A stretch of DNA of 64,000 nt from an uncultured bacterium (GTDB lineage: Bacteria; Fidelibacterota; Marinisomatia; Marinisomatales; J089). A program made the position numbers and the translations under genes. The stretch is from the NCBI GenBank assembly GCA_964535735.1, contig CAZHTM010000002.1:5082-69081 (forward strand), written 5' to 3'. The stretch's first letter is position 1; each line of letters begins with the position of its first letter. Of this stretch, positions 4,815-48,871 are shown piece by piece. The notes beneath the pieces are model-generated. The model saw only the letters and a program-made list of their open reading frames with translations. It did no database searches and was not told the DNA's origin.

Positions 4815-5756
4815 ATGCAATATAATAAAATTCTATGGTGCTTAATAATCACTGGCGCATTTGGGCAAGTAAATATTGATGAGCGATTGACGTATTTTCC
4901 CCTTCAACTAGGTAATGTATGGCAGTATTATTATACACGAGATAATGATGGAGATGTATCTAATGGTTTACGAAAGTATGAAGTCATCGGAGATACGGTG
5001 TTGGAGGATAATTATACCTATCGTGTTTTGAGGGTTTCTACTATACTACCGAATTCGGAAACGACGGGTTTGGAGTTTTTAAAAATCGATTCTACCAATG
5101 CGGCCATTACTTCTCCGGACAGTATAAGAATTTATGATCTAGGTCTCGTCCTGAATGAATTTGATACAGTGTATTCCCAAATGGGACTTTGTCGGATCTA
5201 TTACCTGGGCTACGGTGAGAATGAAGCTTTAAGCGTTACATCAGATTCTATGATGAAGCATGAATATTCTTTATTGCTAGGTTCAGGGATAGGAGGGATT
5301 ATGCAATTTTACACATGGTGTTACCTTTTCCCTGATATTGGTATAACCTTTTGGGCAGACGTTAGAGAGTTTCCCAATCCGGGTGGAGAAGATATTTTTA
5401 TCTCTGAATCCTTGGCGATTACCGCCGCCGTCATCAATGGGGTTCAATATGGAGAATTTGTGACGCTTGAAACGCTCGTGGAAACTCATCCGACTGTGAT
5501 TTCTATATCCCAGAATTATCCCAATCCTTTTAACAGTCAAACACGAATACAATTTTCAATTTCAGAAAGAGAAAAAATTAAAATTTCCGTATCGTCTATT
5601 ACCGGTGAGCAGATCTCCCTTTTAGCTGACAGGGAATTCAATCCGGGTACACATCAGATAAACTGGGATGGAAGTCAAGTGTCAAGTGGAATATATCTCA
5701 TATACTTTGAATCCAATCAATTCACCCGGACCATAAAAGCTGTTTTAATGAAATAA
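4815..5756 (+). CDS. Secreted protein with a T9SS type A / FlgD-Ig-like C-terminal domain
   Basis: Signal peptide, YFPLQLGNVWQY, C-terminal SQNYPNPFNSQTRIQF...SSGIYL...KAVLMK. Confidence 0.85.
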   Translation: MQYNKILWCLIITGAFGQVNIDERLTYFPLQLGNVWQYYYTRDNDGDVSNGLRKYEVIGDTVLEDNYTYRVLRVSTILPNSETTGLEFLKIDSTNAAITSPDSIRIYDLGLVLNEFDTVYSQMGLCRIYYLGYGENEALSVTSDSMMKHEYSLLLGSGIGGIMQFYTWCYLFPDIGITFWADVREFPNPGGEDIFISESLAITAAVINGVQYGEFVTLETLVETHPTVISISQNYPNPFNSQTRIQFSISEREKIKISVSSITGEQISLLADREFNPGTHQINWDGSQVSSGIYLIYFESNQFTRTIKAVLMK

Positions 5757-5842: not shown

Positions 5843-6175
5843 TTGTCTCGCAATCGTAACAGTCGATTGGTGTATTCCACCGATCCGGACTTGCCGCTTA
5901 AGGAGGAGCAACCGGAGGAGAAATTCGTAGAGCCTGGTGCTCAGAACCTCCGCATCTGGCGGGAACGACGGGGTGGCGGAAAGATAGTCACAATCGTGAA
6001 AGGATTCCAGGGACCGGAAGCAGAACTGATGGACCTTGGAAAACGATTGAAACGCCATTGCGGAGCAGGAGGAACTGTCAAAGACGGCCAGATTCTTATT
6101 CAGGGTGATGTTCGGGATAAGGTGCTGACCCAGTTGCTGTCCTGGGGTTATGGCGCCAAAAAGAGCGGAGGGTAG
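5843..6175 (+). CDS. yciH: SUI1-family translation initiation factor (YciH)
   Basis: LVYSTD, RRGGGKIVTIVKGF, LKRHCGAGGTVKDGQILIQGD. Confidence 0.92.
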   Translation: MSRNRNSRLVYSTDPDLPLKEEQPEEKFVEPGAQNLRIWRERRGGGKIVTIVKGFQGPEAELMDLGKRLKRHCGAGGTVKDGQILIQGDVRDKVLTQLLSWGYGAKKSGG

Positions 6176-6178
6176 ACG

Positions 6179-7549
6179 GTGCTTTATCGCCTGATCAAGG
6201 CCCTGGCCATCCTGGCGGTGAAAACCTTTTTTAATCGCATTATCATCCGCCATCGTTCTCGCATCCCTGAATCAGGACCGGTCATCTTCGTGGCAAACCA
6301 TCCCAACACCATGATCGATCCGTTAGTGATTGGGTATGCCGTCAACCGAGATTTATCCTACCTTGCCAAAAGCACCCTTTTTAAACGTCCCATGAACCAC
6401 TGGATCCTGACCAAACTTCGCCTGGTACCCGTGTTTCGTAAAATGGACAACCCCAACGAAACGGCGAAAAATGAACGGACCTTTGAGAAATGTTATCAAA
6501 TTCTGGAAAAAGGAGATGCGTTTCTCATTTTTCCAGAAGGTGTCTCCACCGGAGAACAGACGATCAACAAAATTAAGACCGGAGCCGCCCGGATCGGATT
6601 CGGCGCAGAACAACGCAATGACTTTAAGCTAGGCGTTCAGATTGTTCCCGTGGGCATCAGTTATTCCGATATCACCAAATTTCGCAGCGATGTGACCATA
6701 CGGTTCGGACGACCGATTGAGCTCAGCGAGTATCGGGAACTTTATCAGCAAGATGAGGTGGAGGCGGTACGGACGGTCACTGGAATCATCGATGAAGCCC
6801 TGCATAAACTCACTTTGACATTAGAGCATCTGGAGATCGAAAGCATCGTGGAATCCATCAAGAAAATTTACCAGCAGGAATTGATGGTGGAGTTGGGTAA
6901 AGTCAAAGGGCGGGGCGTTTCTGATTTTTCCATCACCAAGGGTCTTATCAATGCCGTGGAGTGGTTTTATCAGAACTATCCTGAAAAGGTGTTAACCTTT
7001 AAAGAGGACTTGGATCATTATTTACGAAATTTGAATCGACTCCATGTAAAAGATGAATTTTTACAACCCCGGGGAAATCCGTCACCGCTGGCCCACCGCA
7101 TTCGAATGGCCTTGGTTCTCTTGGCGGGCTTCCCGATTTTTGTGTTCGGACTGATCAACAATTACATTCCACATAAAATCCCACGGTGGTACACCCAGAC
7201 CAAGGGAGTGGAAAAATCCATGTATGCCACCACCAAGATGGTGATCGGAATCGGCAGTTTTCTCCTGTATTATGCCCTGATTTTAACCGTGGTTTCGTTC
7301 CTGTCCCCGTCCTGGGTGTATACCGTCATCTATGCTATTGCGATACCCCCCAGCGGCAATTACGTTCTGCGTTACATCCGTTTAGTAGACACTTATCGTC
7401 AGCATCTTACGTTTTTATCCATTTTCTACCGGAAAAAATATTTGTTGTTCAAATTGATCGAGGAACGAAATCGTCTGATTTCTGATCTGAATAAATACAA
7501 GGAAGATTATTATTCAAAAACCGGCTTTGTCCCGGGAACTTCATCCTGA
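6179..7549 (+). CDS. PlsC-family lysophospholipid acyltransferase with C-terminal membrane domain
   Basis: NHPNTMID (HX4D), FPEG motif, C-terminal TM helices. Confidence 0.85.
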   Translation: MLYRLIKALAILAVKTFFNRIIIRHRSRIPESGPVIFVANHPNTMIDPLVIGYAVNRDLSYLAKSTLFKRPMNHWILTKLRLVPVFRKMDNPNETAKNERTFEKCYQILEKGDAFLIFPEGVSTGEQTINKIKTGAARIGFGAEQRNDFKLGVQIVPVGISYSDITKFRSDVTIRFGRPIELSEYRELYQQDEVEAVRTVTGIIDEALHKLTLTLEHLEIESIVESIKKIYQQELMVELGKVKGRGVSDFSITKGLINAVEWFYQNYPEKVLTFKEDLDHYLRNLNRLHVKDEFLQPRGNPSPLAHRIRMALVLLAGFPIFVFGLINNYIPHKIPRWYTQTKGVEKSMYATTKMVIGIGSFLLYYALILTVVSFLSPSWVYTVIYAIAIPPSGNYVLRYIRLVDTYRQHLTFLSIFYRKKYLLFKLIEERNRLISDLNKYKEDYYSKTGFVPGTSS

Positions 7550-7594
7550 GATTATTGTTTTCTACTCCCTAATGAATCGCCTAAATTGAAACCT

Positions 7595-8782
7595 ATGTTG
7601 AAACAAAAATCCATATTACTCATCGGAATTCTAGCCGTTATTGCCGGGTGTTCCAGTAAAGAAGTCAAAGAGGGTAAGCTCACTTTCGTCACAACAGCCA
7701 ATGTAAGGGCTCAATTTGATCCCTGTGGGTGAAAGGCCAATCCCCTGGGCGGTCTGCCCAGACGCGCAACCTACCTCAAAGAGCTGAAAGACAAAGGACT
7801 AACCCCCATTCTTCTGGATGCGGGTGACGTATTTTTCGAGAACTCCGGATTACCACAATACAAGGTAACCGCTGCCAAATACAAAGCAAAAAAAATGCTG
7901 GAGGGTTACCAGAAACTTGGATACCGAGCCATCAATATCGGTCAATACGATTTTGCTGCCGGCCCGGATTTCCTAAAATCCCTGGCCGATTCCGCGTCCA
8001 TTCCTTTTTTATCCGCCAATCTCGTGGATGAAACTTCCGGGGAACCAGTATTTAAACCATATATCATTATTGAAGAAGGCGGATTCAGGATAGGCGTGAT
8101 CGGTCTCATCAGCAGATTACCGGCCAATTATCCCGGTTTAAGGCTTAAAGATATGATACTTACGGGAAAGGAATTAATCGAATCACTGAAGCCGAAAACT
8201 GATTTAATTGTCGTCTTGGCCAACGTGGATAGTCGCAAGAATCGCGACATTCAAGACGCCTTTCCCGATGCCAAGTATATATTTGTCAGCCGCGGAAGCC
8301 TTCGGACTCAACCAGGTCAAAAACAGCCGGAGGGCGGACCTTACCTGTATTCCAGTAGCATTCAGGGGAAATACGTCAGCGAGGTTCAGCTCGTTATAGC
8401 CAATCTGGATTCCCCTATCGTGGATGTTTCTCACTATAATGCCACCATTAAGAATGTGAAAGCACGGTTTGAAAACCTGAAGAAAAAAGACCCCAATCGT
8501 CCACTGGAAGAAGTCTATGCCAATCAGCCCAATGTGTTGCGATTAATTAAAAACTATCGGCAACAGTTAGAGATCGCTGAGGCCGGCTTAAAACACGCCG
8601 TGAATCGTTCAGAATTCAAACTTGTGCCTTTAAACCGGAAAATCAAAGATGATCCGGATATGTTGGTGTTTATTGACGATGTTTTGGCAAAAGCGGATAG
8701 CCTTCAAGGAAAACCACCCGTAACCATGTCTACCAAAACCCGTTCACCCAAACCCCAAAAACGTTCTCTTAAGGTTCAGTGA
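7595..8782 (+). CDS. UshA-like (metallophosphoesterase-fold) lipoprotein selenoprotein, Sec at codon 46
   Basis: ATG 7595 is in frame with the listed 7895 ORF; lipobox IAGC; DPCG-TGA(7730)-KANPLGGLPRRATYLKEL...LDAGD continues homology across the TGA; SECIS present. Confidence 0.88.
7730..7761 (+). promoter_or_regulatory. Bacterial SECIS element
   Basis: CTGGGC-GGTCT-GCCCAG hairpin at 7745-7761; the apical loop starts 18 nt after the UGA, as in the E. coli fdhF SECIS (GGUCU). Confidence 0.85.
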
Positions 8783-9264
8783 AAACCAGGGGTTTAGTAG
8801 CGGCTATAATCTATGGCGTGTTGGGGTGTGCGGTTGGTCTACTATTTAATAGCGTAAGGTCGGATGGTATACCCTTAGTGGCGGAATCCCTGCCGACCAT
8901 AGCCGATTCCACCGTATCTATGAATCCCGACAGTTTGTCTGGAATTCACGTTATTAATCTCCAACAAGCGAAATTTTACTATGATAAGGGGATTCCTTTT
9001 ATCGACGCCCGGGAAGAGGAAGAGTACCGGGAAGGTCACATCGTCGGAGCGTTTCCCTTTCTCAATTTTATGGAATTGGTGTTCAATTTGGATACCCTTC
9101 AAACCCGAGAGGACCTGATTATCACTTACTGCAGTGATGCGGAGTGTGGCCTGAGTAAAAACCTGGCTTACGACCTCCAGGCCTCCGGATTTACTCACAT
9201 CCTAGTATTCGAAGGAGGGTGGAACGATTGGGTAGCAGCGGGATATCCCGTGGAGTCCGAATGA
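8779..9264 (+). CDS. Membrane-anchored rhodanese-like domain protein
   Basis: N-terminal TM, FIDAREEEEYREGHIVGA, YCSDAEC active loop, FEGGWNDW. Confidence 0.88.
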   Translation: MKTRGLVAAIIYGVLGCAVGLLFNSVRSDGIPLVAESLPTIADSTVSMNPDSLSGIHVINLQQAKFYYDKGIPFIDAREEEEYREGHIVGAFPFLNFMELVFNLDTLQTREDLIITYCSDAECGLSKNLAYDLQASGFTHILVFEGGWNDWVAAGYPVESE

Positions 9265-9692
9265 AAACGGGAACTTACGTAGTCCTTTTTGCCCGAATCG
9301 TCGTGGGCGCTGTGTTGATTTATGCCAGCATTGATAAAATCACCGATCCGCTGGAATTCTCCAAGGCGATTACCAATTACCATATGCTGCCCTGGGGATT
9401 GGAAAATCTGTTAGCCATCACGCTGCCATGGATTGAATTATTTGTGGGAGTTGGCCTTTTAGCGGGAATCTATTTGGATGGCGCGGCCTTGGTGGCTCAA
9501 TCCTTGATGCTTGTGTTTATTCTAGCGATCGGTTCCGCCATTTTACGGGGAATAGACATTGAGTGCGGCTGTGGATTAAAAGACGGCGAAATGGTGGGCG
9601 TACCCAAAATTCTTGAAGATTTGGTGTATTACGGGCTTGCGCTATTGATCTATTTTCGTCGAGAACGCGGCTTCCTGGAACTTCTTAAATAA
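9261..9692 (+). CDS. MauE/DoxX-family redox-associated membrane protein
   Basis: ARIVVG..LIYASIDKI.DP, LPWIEL, RGIDIECGC; ATG 9261 overlaps the rhodanese stop (ATGA). Confidence 0.85.
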   Translation: MKTGTYVVLFARIVVGAVLIYASIDKITDPLEFSKAITNYHMLPWGLENLLAITLPWIELFVGVGLLAGIYLDGAALVAQSLMLVFILAIGSAILRGIDIECGCGLKDGEMVGVPKILEDLVYYGLALLIYFRRERGFLELLK

Positions 9693-46009: not shown

Positions 46010-46367
46010 GATCTTGTTCGTGAATCCGTTTAATTATTTTACTCAGATGATCCTGCAAATCAAAACTATCATCGTATTTAAATTTTAATTCCGGAATGGC
46101 TTTGATGTGCAATTCGGGGGCCAGGTATTTTCGGAAGACTTTCGATAATTTCTTTAACTCGGATTGTATTTTCTCCCGACTTTTAAGCGGTTCCAACACG
46201 CTATAATAGACATGAGCAATCTTTAAATCGGGGGTTAAATCGACGTGGGAAAACGTGATAAATCCCAGATGTGAAAGATCAATATGCCGTGTGGCAATCT
46301 CGGCTAGGATTTCCTGGATTTGAGCGCCGACCCGATCGGTTCGACGATAAGGTTTTTCCGTGTTCAA
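45990..46367 (-). CDS. rbfA: Ribosome-binding factor A
   Basis: RRTDRVG, VDLTPDLKIAHVYYS, IPELKFKYD. Confidence 0.93.
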   Translation of the reverse strand: MNTEKPYRRTDRVGAQIQEILAEIATRHIDLSHLGFITFSHVDLTPDLKIAHVYYSVLEPLKSREKIQSELKKLSKVFRKYLAPELHIKAIPELKFKYDDSFDLQDHLSKIIKRIHEQDHDTESV

Positions 46368-48871
46368 TTTTCTTCAAGGGTCCGTTTAATTTTCTTCACT
46401 TCGTAAACGATAATCTCATCACCTTCTTTATACTTGCTAACGCCTTCCAGACCAATTCCACATTCCAGTCCCTCTTTCACTTCGCGAACATCGTCTTTAA
46501 AGCGTTTGAGAGAAAGGATAGACGCATTGTTCACAATTACTTCATCGTCCCGTATCAGTCGGGCTCTGAGATTTCTGGAAATTTGTCCTTCCACCACTTT
46601 CGCTCCGGCGATGAACCCGATTTTCGGGATTTTGAATTGCGCCTGAACAATGGCGCGCCCGCGGATTTCTTCCACTTCTTCCGGCTCTAACAAACCTTCC
46701 AGCGCTAATTTGATTTCTTCCAGGGCATTATAGATGATTTTGTAATTTCGTATTTCCACTCCAGCTTGTTTCGCCTGGAGTTTCGCATTGGGGCCTACCT
46801 GGACATTAAATCCAATGATGACCGCTTTAGAGGCCTCCGCCAGTAAAACATCACCTTCCGATATCATTCCTACCGATTTGTGGATGATGTTAACGCCGAC
46901 TTCCTCTGTATTCAATTTTTCCAGCGACTCAGAAAGGGCTTCCACGGAGCCATCCACATCTCCTTTGATGATCAACGGCAATTGCTTGATCGCGCCCTTC
47001 TTGATCAATGCGGACATGCTGTCCAAGGAATGGGCGCCAATTTTCTTTTGGGCGATTTCGCGGGAAATTCGTTGGCGTTCGCCAGTAATGCGTTTCAAAT
47101 CTCGTTCATTTTCAACAACGGCAAAAATATCGGCAGCCTGAGGGACCTGTTCAAATCCTAACACCTGGACGGCATCGGAAGGATAGGCTTCTGTAATCCG
47201 TTGGCCCCGTTCATTCATAATGGCCCGGACTTTTCCGGAATAATCACTGCAAATAAAGGGATCCCCTACATGTAAGGTCCCTTTCTGGATCAATACTGTT
47301 GCCATGGGTCCATGCCCCCGGTCCAGCCGAGAATCAACCACTGTTCCCCGGGCCAAAGTATCTCGATTGGCTTTCAATTCCATCACTTCCGCTTCAATCA
47401 AGATGGAATTCAGTAGATCTTCGATCCCCTCTCCCGTCTTCGCGGATACTGGAACACACTGAACCTTACCACCCCAATCTTCGACTAAAATCCCATGATC
47501 GGACAGTTCCCGTTTCACTTTATCGATATCCGCACCTGCTTTATCAATTTTATTGATTGCCACAATGATGGGTGAACCGGCAGCTTTGGCATGGTTGATC
47601 GCTTCCACGGTCTGAGGCATGACGCTGTCATCGGCGGCCACGACCAAAACCACAATATCAGTTACTTGCGCTCCACGGGCACGCATGGCGGTAAACGCTT
47701 CGTGCCCCGGCGTATCCAGAAAAGTAATCGATTGCCCGGAGTCCAAATTGACCCGGTAAGCTCCAATATGTTGTGTAATACCGCCCGATTCTCCAGCGAC
47801 GACGTTTTCACTCCGGATATAATCCAACAGTGAAGTTTTCCCGTGGTCCACGTGCCCCATCACCGTAACAATTGGTGCCCGCGGTTCTGCTTTTTCTAAA
47901 TCTTCTTCCGTGTCCTCCATAGAAAATATTTCTTCGCCCACATCGGTTTGCTTCACCGCTGTATACTCATATTCCATCGCCAGGAGTTCGATCGTATCCC
48001 ACTCCAAGCGCTGGTTGATTGTTGCCAGAACACCAAGATTAAAACATTTTTGAATAATATCGCTGGGACTTACTGAAAACAATTTGGCAATTTCATCAAC
48101 GCTGGCGAATTCAGGTATTTCAATTGTGGGGAAGTTGCCACTGGAGACTTCAATCTCGCGAGTTTCCGTCCGGGTTTTCTTGTGGGATTTTTTCTTCGGT
48201 TTCTTCTCTAGTTTGGAAAGTGTCTGCCGCACCCGTTCCTGAACGGATTTCTGTGCTTTGGAATCCTGAGTTGATTTCCCCCTGGATTTCGATGATCGGG
48301 CACTGGTACCACTACTGGGCTGAATCTCCGATAAATCAATTTTGCGCAGCTTCCGTTTCTTAGAGGAAATTTTAGTTACCTTTTCGGTTTCCTTTTTCTT
48401 TCGCTCTTCAACGGCCTGTTTTTTCTTTTGCTCCGCCGCTTCCAATTCCGCTTGTTTTTTCTTCTCTGCAGCTAAGGCCTCTGCCTTCTTACGTTCCTTT
48501 TCTTGGCGGCGCGTTTCTTCCTGTTTACGCTTTTGTTCTTCTTCTTCGCGTTTTTTCCGTTCTTCAGCTTCCTTTCTCTCCAAAGCCCGTTGCTCATCAA
48601 TCGACAGAATTTTAAAGGATCTCCGGGTTTTCTGCTCCTGAAGAACTCGCGAATCATGGATTTCCCGCCGTACCTGCTCTTTACGCATTCGGTCAACAGT
48701 CTCTTTATCCTTTGAAAATTCTGTCAGGATTTTTTGATAAATGACTTCATCAACCGGTGACATGTGGCTGGCTACGTCAACACCTTCCGCTTTAAGAAAT
48801 GATAATATCTCCGTATGAGAAATATTCAATTCCTTAGCGATTTGAAAAATGCGTATTGGTCGGCTACCCAT
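46364..48871 (-). CDS. infB: Translation initiation factor IF-2
   Basis: [36 protein letters not shown]. Confidence 0.97.

Follow-up and report, generated by a model that had tools for sequence, protein, structure and literature searches.

A predicted UshA-like selenoprotein of Fidelibacterota with an in-frame UGA, a candidate SECIS hairpin and conserved rhodanese and MauE/DoxX gene neighbours

The UshA-like family of selenoproteins has been known from genome mining since 2008, without a function. It was reported in the Global Ocean Sampling selenoproteome as 'COG0737, UshA-like', with a CxU motif, 76 selenocysteine (Sec) sequences and 92 cysteine homologues, and that study remarked that it belongs to a small number of major families in which no redox motif is recognised (PMC2398784). 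It also appears, together with the NCBIfam model NF041198, in reviews from 2022 and 2026, which include a second family, NF049981, with a CxxU motif (PMC9312934, PMC13188914). The selenoproteome studies of the Sargasso Sea (2005) and of the Olavius symbiont (2007) make no mention of the UshA-like family. The member considered here is encoded on the forward strand, at positions 7595..8782, of a 64,000-nucleotide (nt) stretch of DNA, referred to below as the window, from an uncultured bacterium of the Fidelibacterota (contig CAZHTM010000002.1, positions 5,082 to 69,081, assembly GCA_964535735.1). A preliminary description of this DNA had already pointed out that proteins of this type are known and their function is not, and the literature bears this out; the finding of a UshA-like CxU selenoprotein with a Sec insertion sequence (SECIS) is in itself not new. 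The gene is described below together with its recoded UGA, its hairpin, its altered active site and its conserved neighbours.

The frame that begins at ATG 7595 is open to the stop codon at 8780-8782 apart from a lone TGA at 7730-7732. This UGA is almost certainly read as selenocysteine by means of a hairpin within the coding sequence (CDS), with other UGAs terminating translation normally. The read-through product comprises 395 codons and a stop, which is itself a TGA (8780-8782); it begins MLKQKSILLIGILAVIAGCSSKE and has Sec at residue 46. The codon lies in the context AQFDPCG*KANPLGGLPRR, that is D-P-C-G-U-K-A-N-P-L-G-G, within which the P-C-G-U-K motif (Pro43, Cys44, Gly45, Sec46 and Lys47) occupies 7721..7735 and gives NF041198, 'UshA_like_PCGU', its name. 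An in-frame TTG is present at 7586, three codons 5' of the ATG, and ATG 7595 was taken as the start. The N-terminal signal peptide (7595..7651), MLKQKSILLIGILAVIAG followed by Cys19 (codon 7649-7651), carries a canonical lipobox, V-I-A-G-C, at the end of the segment LAVIAG-C19, although the Pfam LPAM_1 match to the N-terminus (E 0.029) is under its cut-off. Of 101 full-length orthologues, 91 likewise begin with a hydrophobic stretch and then [GSAN]-C, and from its lipobox signal peptide the window protein is predicted to be an exported lipoprotein.

This gene is missing in its full form from gene collections. For this locus the mechanical list of open reading frames (ORFs) contains only 7895..8782, a model of 295 residues in which the signal peptide and the Sec motif are absent and the fold is short of its first 100 residues. 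The same mis-annotation is found in public collections, where one entry (P0001; database homologues are numbered P and related loci L) is the identical shortened product (100% identity, 75% coverage), found on JGI contigs of 82 and 4.5 kb. The coordinates proposed earlier for the longer frame, with its start at 7595 and a single TGA at 7730, were all correct, and the reading of the extension as a signal peptide with a lipobox, and of the whole as an exported selenoprotein of 395 residues, held on closer analysis.

The first line of evidence for site-specific recoding is the conservation of the TGA codon itself. One genome for each of 185,579 species was scanned with the pattern CCN TGY GGN TGA AAR NNN AAY CCN YTN GGN GG. 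The motif with TGA was found in at least 119 species genomes; among the matches listed, the carriers are mostly Marinimicrobia/Fidelibacterota, with a few metagenome-assembled genomes (MAGs) of Calditrichaeota, Myxococcota/Deltaproteobacteria and Lentisphaeria. The equivalent motif with TGY was found in a single genome and that with TGG in none. Wherever the contig is long enough the reading frame past the TGA runs for approximately 310-450 codons in orthologues. Conserved coding sequence flanks the TGA on both sides, the upstream part consisting of the leader and the motif. The closest homologues of the window protein share 70-77% identity with it, and the gene is also present on a closed Fidelibacterota chromosome, OZ252221.1 (L006). 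Several Marinimicrobia MAGs carry two copies, apparently paralogues, on separate contigs (L024 and L032 in CAJWLO01, L012 and L069 in PASX01, L021 and L066 in CAJWHW01).

The preliminary description had looked to homologues with Cys or TGA at this position as support, and to Trp as a sign against Sec. Apart from the TGA forms, true Cys is found at the Sec column of distant homologues as C-G-C or C-S-C (P0070, P0072, P0075, P0076 and P0080), and one locus (L127) carries TGC. Tryptophan is seen only in stored protein sequences: many database homologues (P0006, P0009, P0020, P0024 and others) are printed with DPCGWK, and other entries are cut at an internal methionine. In all three of the 'W' entries checked the underlying DNA has TGA, and translation of the gene fails to reproduce the stored protein. 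Hence the 'W' is an artefact of gene calling on short contigs with genetic code 4. Elsewhere in the window TGA is an ordinary stop, as had also been stated: 54 non-overlapping long ORFs end in TAA (27), TGA (15) or TAG (12), those with TGA including an infB-like gene (46364-48871) and the selenoprotein gene. The latter's own stop is TGA in 39 of 101 complete orthologous genes. A scan of the 64-kb window for a second TGA-split ORF gave no further candidate. Another ORF of the window, at 4815-5756, encodes a Por_Secre_tail domain (type IX secretion sorting), which fits the FCB group that includes Fidelibacterota/Marinimicrobia, as do the closest homologues of the selenoprotein.

The second line of evidence is the hairpin that follows the UGA. 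Bacterial SECIS elements are sought by bSECISearch as hairpins with a G in the apical loop roughly 16-37 nt past the UGA. That of E. coli fdhF has a 4-nt GGUC loop closed by an A-U pair and a bulged U (U17), and G23 and U24 of its loop have a role in SelB binding. In the window a perfect 6-bp inverted repeat, CTGGGC (7745-7750) and GCCCAG (7756-7761), surrounds the loop GGTCT (7751-7755), giving a hairpin at 7745..7761 with a folding energy of -11.5 kcal/mol. The loop starts 18 nt past the UGA, within the bSECISearch range. A 42-nt fdhF segment (TGA, 18 nt and GGTCTG) matched E. coli fdhF at 100% in 5,413 of the records searched, so GGUCUG holds the same positions past the UGA in both genes. 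Both elements lie inside the CDS directly after the UGA with the same 18 nt to the loop, and both present G23 and U24 in the loop. However, the hairpin described here has a 6-bp stem without the bulged U17 or the extended lower helix of fdhF, and a 5-nt loop (GGUCU) closed by C-G in place of the 4-nt loop closed by A-U. The earlier likening of the hairpin to that of fdhF thus stands for the spacing and the positions of GGUCUG, with these differences in loop length and bulge. An Rfam scan of the window gave only tRNAs at gathering thresholds and a signal recognition particle RNA match at chance level (E 8.5), with no match to a bacterial SECIS.

As the hairpin encodes L-G-G-L-P/S-R, conservation of the protein has to be separated from conservation of the RNA. 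The scan pattern placed no constraint on the third positions of the Leu and first Gly codons or on anything 3' of GGNGG. Within the hairpin the two Gly codons are frozen, as GGC in 116 and GGT in 115 of 119 sequences, whereas the neighbouring Pro codon just 5' of the stem varies between CCT (38), CCA (56), CCC (19) and CCG (6). Across 112 distinct sequences (alignment A3) 92% of stem cells are paired, compared with 28-61% in a control in which the partners were slid by 1-3 columns. Pair 24-36 joins two synonymous sites, the third base of Leu and the third base of Pro/Ser, and is found as G-C (46), A-U (25), G-U (12), U-A (11), C-G (2) and U-G (2). The covariation score observed for this pair was reached in none of 500 shuffles, and 12 of the 14 cases counted as unpaired are a variant, CUUGGC-GGUCUU-GCCAGG, that pairs one register over. 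These comparative data argue that the hairpin is selected as RNA and behaves as a bacterial SECIS should.

Related loci without this hairpin fit the same picture. Four of them (L071, L086, L115 and L120) lack the GGCGGUCUG hairpin and have another stem-loop, GGCUC-GGC-GAGCC, approximately 28 nt past the UGA, which looks like an independent SECIS solution in the same family. In the two Cys forms for which DNA is available the corresponding codons are GGG-GGG-CTC and GGC-GGA-CTC, and the constraint of the hairpin is absent. An equivalent hairpin is not present in the Cys form L127.

The read-through protein has as its top NCBIfam match NF041198, 'UshA-like (seleno)protein', with an E-value of 9e-62 over residues 12-384. 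The score of 209.3 bits is under the curated cut-off of 275, and of the 519 profile positions only 5-395 are matched; P0006, a marinimicrobial orthologue, reaches 227.9 bits. The P-C-G-U/C motif of the family is present as D-P-C-G-U-K (residues 42-47). The window protein shares with NF041198 and the COG0737 CxU proteins this motif, a 5'-nucleotidase-like N-terminal domain, Sec or Cys at the same column and a marine origin. The members above the cut-off differ in their C-termini: P0070 and P0072 (280 bits) are Cys forms fused to multihaem cytochrome c domains of the Cytochrome_C554 type, whereas the window protein is a lipoprotein that contains no CxxCH motif, ends in a helical region of approximately 110 residues and has rhodanese and MauE/DoxX partners. 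Two Sec forms, L014 (from a Calditrichaeota MAG) and L115, also carry four C-terminal CxxCH haem motifs and have no rhodanese or DoxX neighbours. The P-C-G-U-K motif resembles the G-C-G-C-K selenide-binding loop of E. coli SelD (residues 16-20), a likeness over four residues that could be due to chance.

A Pfam search with the window selenoprotein gave no domain, and in particular neither PF00149 nor PF02872, the nucleotide-binding domain; the canonical relatives in the homologue list carry both, whereas the clade of the selenoprotein carries neither. By phmmer the protein matches 5'-nucleotidases of the Protein Data Bank (2z1a, E 3.6e-13). An AlphaFold2 model was made for the full-length orthologue P0006, which is 41% identical, and has a mean confidence (pLDDT) of 89.6 and a predicted TM-score of 0.85. 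Its best Foldseek matches are E. coli UshA (1hp1 and 1ush) and CD73, with E-values of approximately 1e-20 and TM-scores of approximately 0.6. Similar to UshA, the protein is exported and has the N-terminal calcineurin-like fold. In place of PF02872 there is the mostly helical C-terminal region, and the C-G-U motif falls in the loop that follows the first strand.

The two-metal centre of the 5'-nucleotidases is almost completely lost. In alignments with Thermus 5'-nucleotidases N-D-T-H is replaced by A-N-V-R, G-N-H-E-F-D by G-Q-Y-D-F-A, the motif-IV His by Asn and G-G-H-S-H by S-R-G-S, leaving the bridging Asp of A-G-D alone; the D-x-H, G-N-H-E, H and G-H-x-H motifs of UshA and CD73 are likewise not retained. 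The ligands of UshA, D41, H43, D84, N116, H217, H252 and Q254 with H117/D120 as the catalytic pair, correspond to N36, R38, D78, Q117, N210, R233 and S235, with Y118/A121 in place of the His-Asp pair. Across 101 orthologues these columns vary freely, the bridging Asp excepted, so that position 117 is G, H, Q, D, V or E and position 233 is R, G, H, L or K. In the alignment the C-G-U motif lies eight residues past the position of the lost motif-I His, which would place it at the mouth of the former active site. The earlier label 'UshA-like' therefore applies to the fold only: with nearly all of its metal ligands lost and no nucleotide-binding domain left, the protein is improbable as a nucleotidase. 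For the same reasons the protein may well be an extracytoplasmic redox protein rather than a phosphoesterase, a view that we hold with rather less than even confidence.

The selenoprotein gene is followed on the same strand by two genes with which it overlaps in series. The first (8779..9264) encodes a rhodanese-domain protein of 161 residues (PF00581, with weak NCBIfam rhodanese matches) that has an N-terminal membrane anchor and a Y-C118-x4-C123 motif; its GTG start overlaps the stop of the selenoprotein gene in GTGA (8779-8782). The second (9261..9692) encodes a four-helix membrane protein of the MauE/DoxX family (PF07291 and PF07681), of 143 residues with a C116-G-C118 motif, whose ATG overlaps the rhodanese stop in ATGA (9261-9264). 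A gap of 351 nt follows downstream. Of the 68 related loci whose downstream DNA is long enough, 47 have rhodanese and MauE/DoxX genes in this order and orientation, and the overlaps and gene order indicate that the three genes form a conserved, translationally coupled operon. The Cys pair is kept in 66-67 of 71 rhodanese sequences and the CGC motif in 59-60 of 60 MauE/DoxX sequences; the CGC loop is predicted to face the periplasm. A downstream rhodanese was undetected in the loci of one group (e.g. L012, L023, L036 and L083), and the neighbourhoods of the cytochrome-fused Cys forms and of the non-marinimicrobial Sec forms showed no conserved partner. The usual upstream neighbour is a SUI1/YciH-family gene (5843..6175, forward strand), which in the window is separated from the selenoprotein gene by an acyltransferase gene (6179-7549). 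SUI1 lies on the same strand approximately 500 nt upstream of the TGA in 69 loci and approximately 1,900 nt upstream in six, the window arrangement included.

Modules that pair a DoxX-family protein with a rhodanese-type sulfurtransferase are known from DoxX-SseA-SodA of M. tuberculosis and from the archaeal thiosulfate:quinone oxidoreductase DoxDA, and are linked to thiol and thiosulfate redox chemistry. The present locus resembles them in this pairing, but here a Sec lipoprotein is added to the pair, the membrane protein also matches MauE and contains a CGC loop that does not vary, and no SodA or DoxA partner is found. A further comparison is offered by SoxB, which belongs to the same superfamily as the selenoprotein and acts on protein-bound sulfur compounds in the periplasm. 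SoxB needs a di-manganese site, however, which is not conserved in the window protein, and the match to TIGR04486 reaches 48 bits against a cut-off of 550. No sox genes were found near the selenoprotein gene.

Taken together these features allow a mechanism to be proposed. As the hairpin presents G23 and U24 at the fdhF distance from the UGA, a SelB-type factor would bind the GGUCU loop and bring Sec-tRNA to the UGA at 7730-7732. In the mature lipoprotein the Cys44-Gly-Sec46 pair would cycle between selenol/thiol and selenenylsulfide, or would carry a sulfur or selenium adduct, on the scaffold of an N-terminal 5'-nucleotidase fold that presumably no longer binds two metals. The selenoprotein could then pass electrons or sulfane sulfur to and from the CX4C rhodanese in the periplasm and the CGC-containing MauE/DoxX protein, forming a three-step thiol/selenol relay from a periplasmic substrate to the membrane, and probably to the quinone pool via MauE/DoxX. 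In other lineages a fused tetrahaem cytochrome c might serve as the electron outlet instead. The substrate would most likely be an inorganic sulfur or selenium species; sulfur is suggested by the rhodanese, by the link of the DoxX family to thiosulfate:quinone oxidoreductase and by the kinship to SoxB (48 bits). It is thus conceivable, and is put forward as a tentative proposal, that the trio makes up an extracytoplasmic selenol/thiol relay of a kind not described before, with a metal-free 5'-nucleotidase fold as its scaffold, coupling inorganic sulfur or selenium redox chemistry to the quinone pool or, in other phyla, to a tetrahaem cytochrome fused to the domain, and that it is nearly obligately selenium-dependent and widespread in dark-ocean Marinimicrobia.

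Several observations weigh against the reading of the locus as a recoded exported lipoprotein with a redox role in a three-gene relay. At 6 bp the hairpin is short; it has no counterpart of the bulged U in fdhF, and its stability taken alone is not significant: its energy z-score in a 41-nt context is -0.19, no better than shuffles, and TGA-N18-GGTCTG is expected 0.28 times per shuffled window, with one or more occurrences in 26 of 100 shuffles. Since such single-sequence statistics give the hairpin no support, the comparative data were relied upon; in these the scan pattern fixed the 5' stem bases 22, 23, 25 and 26 and the first two loop bases, and the conserved peptide P-L-G-G-L-P-R imposes part of the conservation of the hairpin. 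ARAGORN and Rfam found no tRNA-Sec in the window, only seven ordinary tRNAs, and tblastn of the window with E. coli SelA, SelB and SelD gave no selA, selB or selD. Nor did these queries and ARAGORN yield anything across 122 related loci (792 kb), so the decoding machinery, which the preliminary description expected as selABCD elsewhere in the genome, is assumed. In addition, three SAR406 single-cell genomes are listed with an 'orphan' SelD and no other selenium-use genes (PMC5029168, Table 1). As for function, the predicted structure belongs to a homologue with W at the Sec position and not to the window protein, the rhodanese/DoxX pair is missing from 21 of the 68 loci, the topology of the CGC loop follows from the positive-inside rule alone, and the functional model was built from motifs and gene order only, which do not indicate a substrate. 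A probability of roughly 85% is given to this reading as a whole.

A GTPase-domain match at 47171-47872 was considered as a candidate selB and rejected, as it sits in the 835-residue infB-like gene beside a probable nusA.

Among other explanations, the trio might handle selenium or soft metals, for their trafficking or for detoxification, for instance by capturing selenite-derived selenium, Hg or Cu(I), in place of energy-linked sulfur redox chemistry. A C-G-U site would be an excellent ligand for soft metals and selenium, rhodaneses can carry selenium, and the likeness of P-C-G-U-K to G-C-G-C-K of SelD, over four residues only, points the same way. His-rich C-terminal tails, typically H-x-G-H-[DN]-H, are found in approximately 21 of 101 orthologues (L003, L004, L007, L009, L015, L021, L033, L044, L047 and L048 included), and 30 of the 101 end in His. 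These tails may bind metal and so give weak support, but the window protein has no such tail. There are also no transporter, mer, cop or sel genes adjacent to the trio, and the cytochrome fusions seen elsewhere in the family argue for electron transfer. Trafficking or detoxification is therefore unlikely, though it deserves to be kept in mind.

It is less probable again that the protein has stayed a periplasmic hydrolase, whether a phosphoesterase, a nucleotidase or a SoxB-like thiosulfohydrolase, in which Sec replaces a metal ligand or tunes the site. The 5'-nucleotidase fold is retained, as is the bridging Asp of the G-D motif; Asn36 could still bind metal, the HxGHDH tails of approximately 20% of the orthologues suggest metal handling, and there are weak NCBIfam matches to UshA (61 bits), CpdB and SoxB. 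The UshA and SoxB scores are, however, far under the cut-offs of 600 and 550. Substitutions affect six of the seven ligand positions as well as the catalytic His-Asp pair, none of which is conserved in the family, PF02872 is absent, and both the multihaem cytochrome fusions and the Cys-pair partners point to electron or sulfur transfer.

That the UGA is recoded other than as Sec, through hairpin-stimulated near-cognate readthrough by Trp or Cys without SelB, has very little to commend it. The SAR406 single-cell genomes reported with SelD alone would be compatible with this. Nevertheless, the loop holds GGUCU with G23 and U24 at the exact fdhF distance, with Cys or Trp as the product TGY or TGG should often replace TGA, yet they are seen in one genome and none against at least 119, and it is accepted that this is a family of selenoproteins (PMC2398784; NF041198). 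The report of SelD alone is itself weakened by the incompleteness of single-cell genomes; it also means that SelD exists in the SAR406/Marinimicrobia phylum (PMC5029168). The widespread Sec gene suggests that the phylum does use Sec, despite the 'orphan' listing.

The probability that TGA 7730-7732 is a true stop, leaving a pseudogene or a leader peptide of 45 residues followed by a protein of 295 residues from ATG 7895, is smaller still. Gene callers do output the 295-residue model and the Sec machinery was not seen in the window. However, the stretch of 55 codons from the TGA to ATG 7895 codes for the best-conserved region of the family (GGLPRR and LDAGD), and the export signal, with its leader and [GSAN]-C in most orthologues, sits 5' of the TGA. 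Termination would also leave the retention of TGA and frame in at least 119 species, and the freezing of synonymous sites and covariation downstream, without an explanation. Finally, a genome-wide use of TGA as a sense codon (Trp as in code 4 or Gly as in code 25), which the DPCGWK entries might seem to favour, can be dismissed, because the DNA of those entries has TGA and the W comes from the gene caller, TGG occupies the site in none of the genomes scanned, 15 of 54 window genes end in TGA and the 64 kb hold a single TGA-split ORF candidate.

The analysis thus adds to a family already listed a revised gene model for a clade whose members score under the curated hidden Markov model cut-off and are mis-annotated everywhere, together with quantitative evidence for the SECIS, near-exclusive use of Sec, loss of the metal site and a conserved three-gene operon. 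As public gene calls either begin the protein at Met101 or show Trp in place of Sec, searches by homology, for localisation and in metaproteomes use the wrong sequence. The corrected model, the lost metal site and the rhodanese-MauE/DoxX operon provide a concrete and testable hypothesis for the function of the family. Marinimicrobia/Fidelibacterota rank with the most abundant uncultured bacteria in deep and in oxygen-poor ocean waters, and since the gene there uses Sec almost without exception, these bacteria appear to have a real demand for selenium. If the proposed relay is true, it would account for the SAR406 genomes that have been reported with an 'orphan' SelD.

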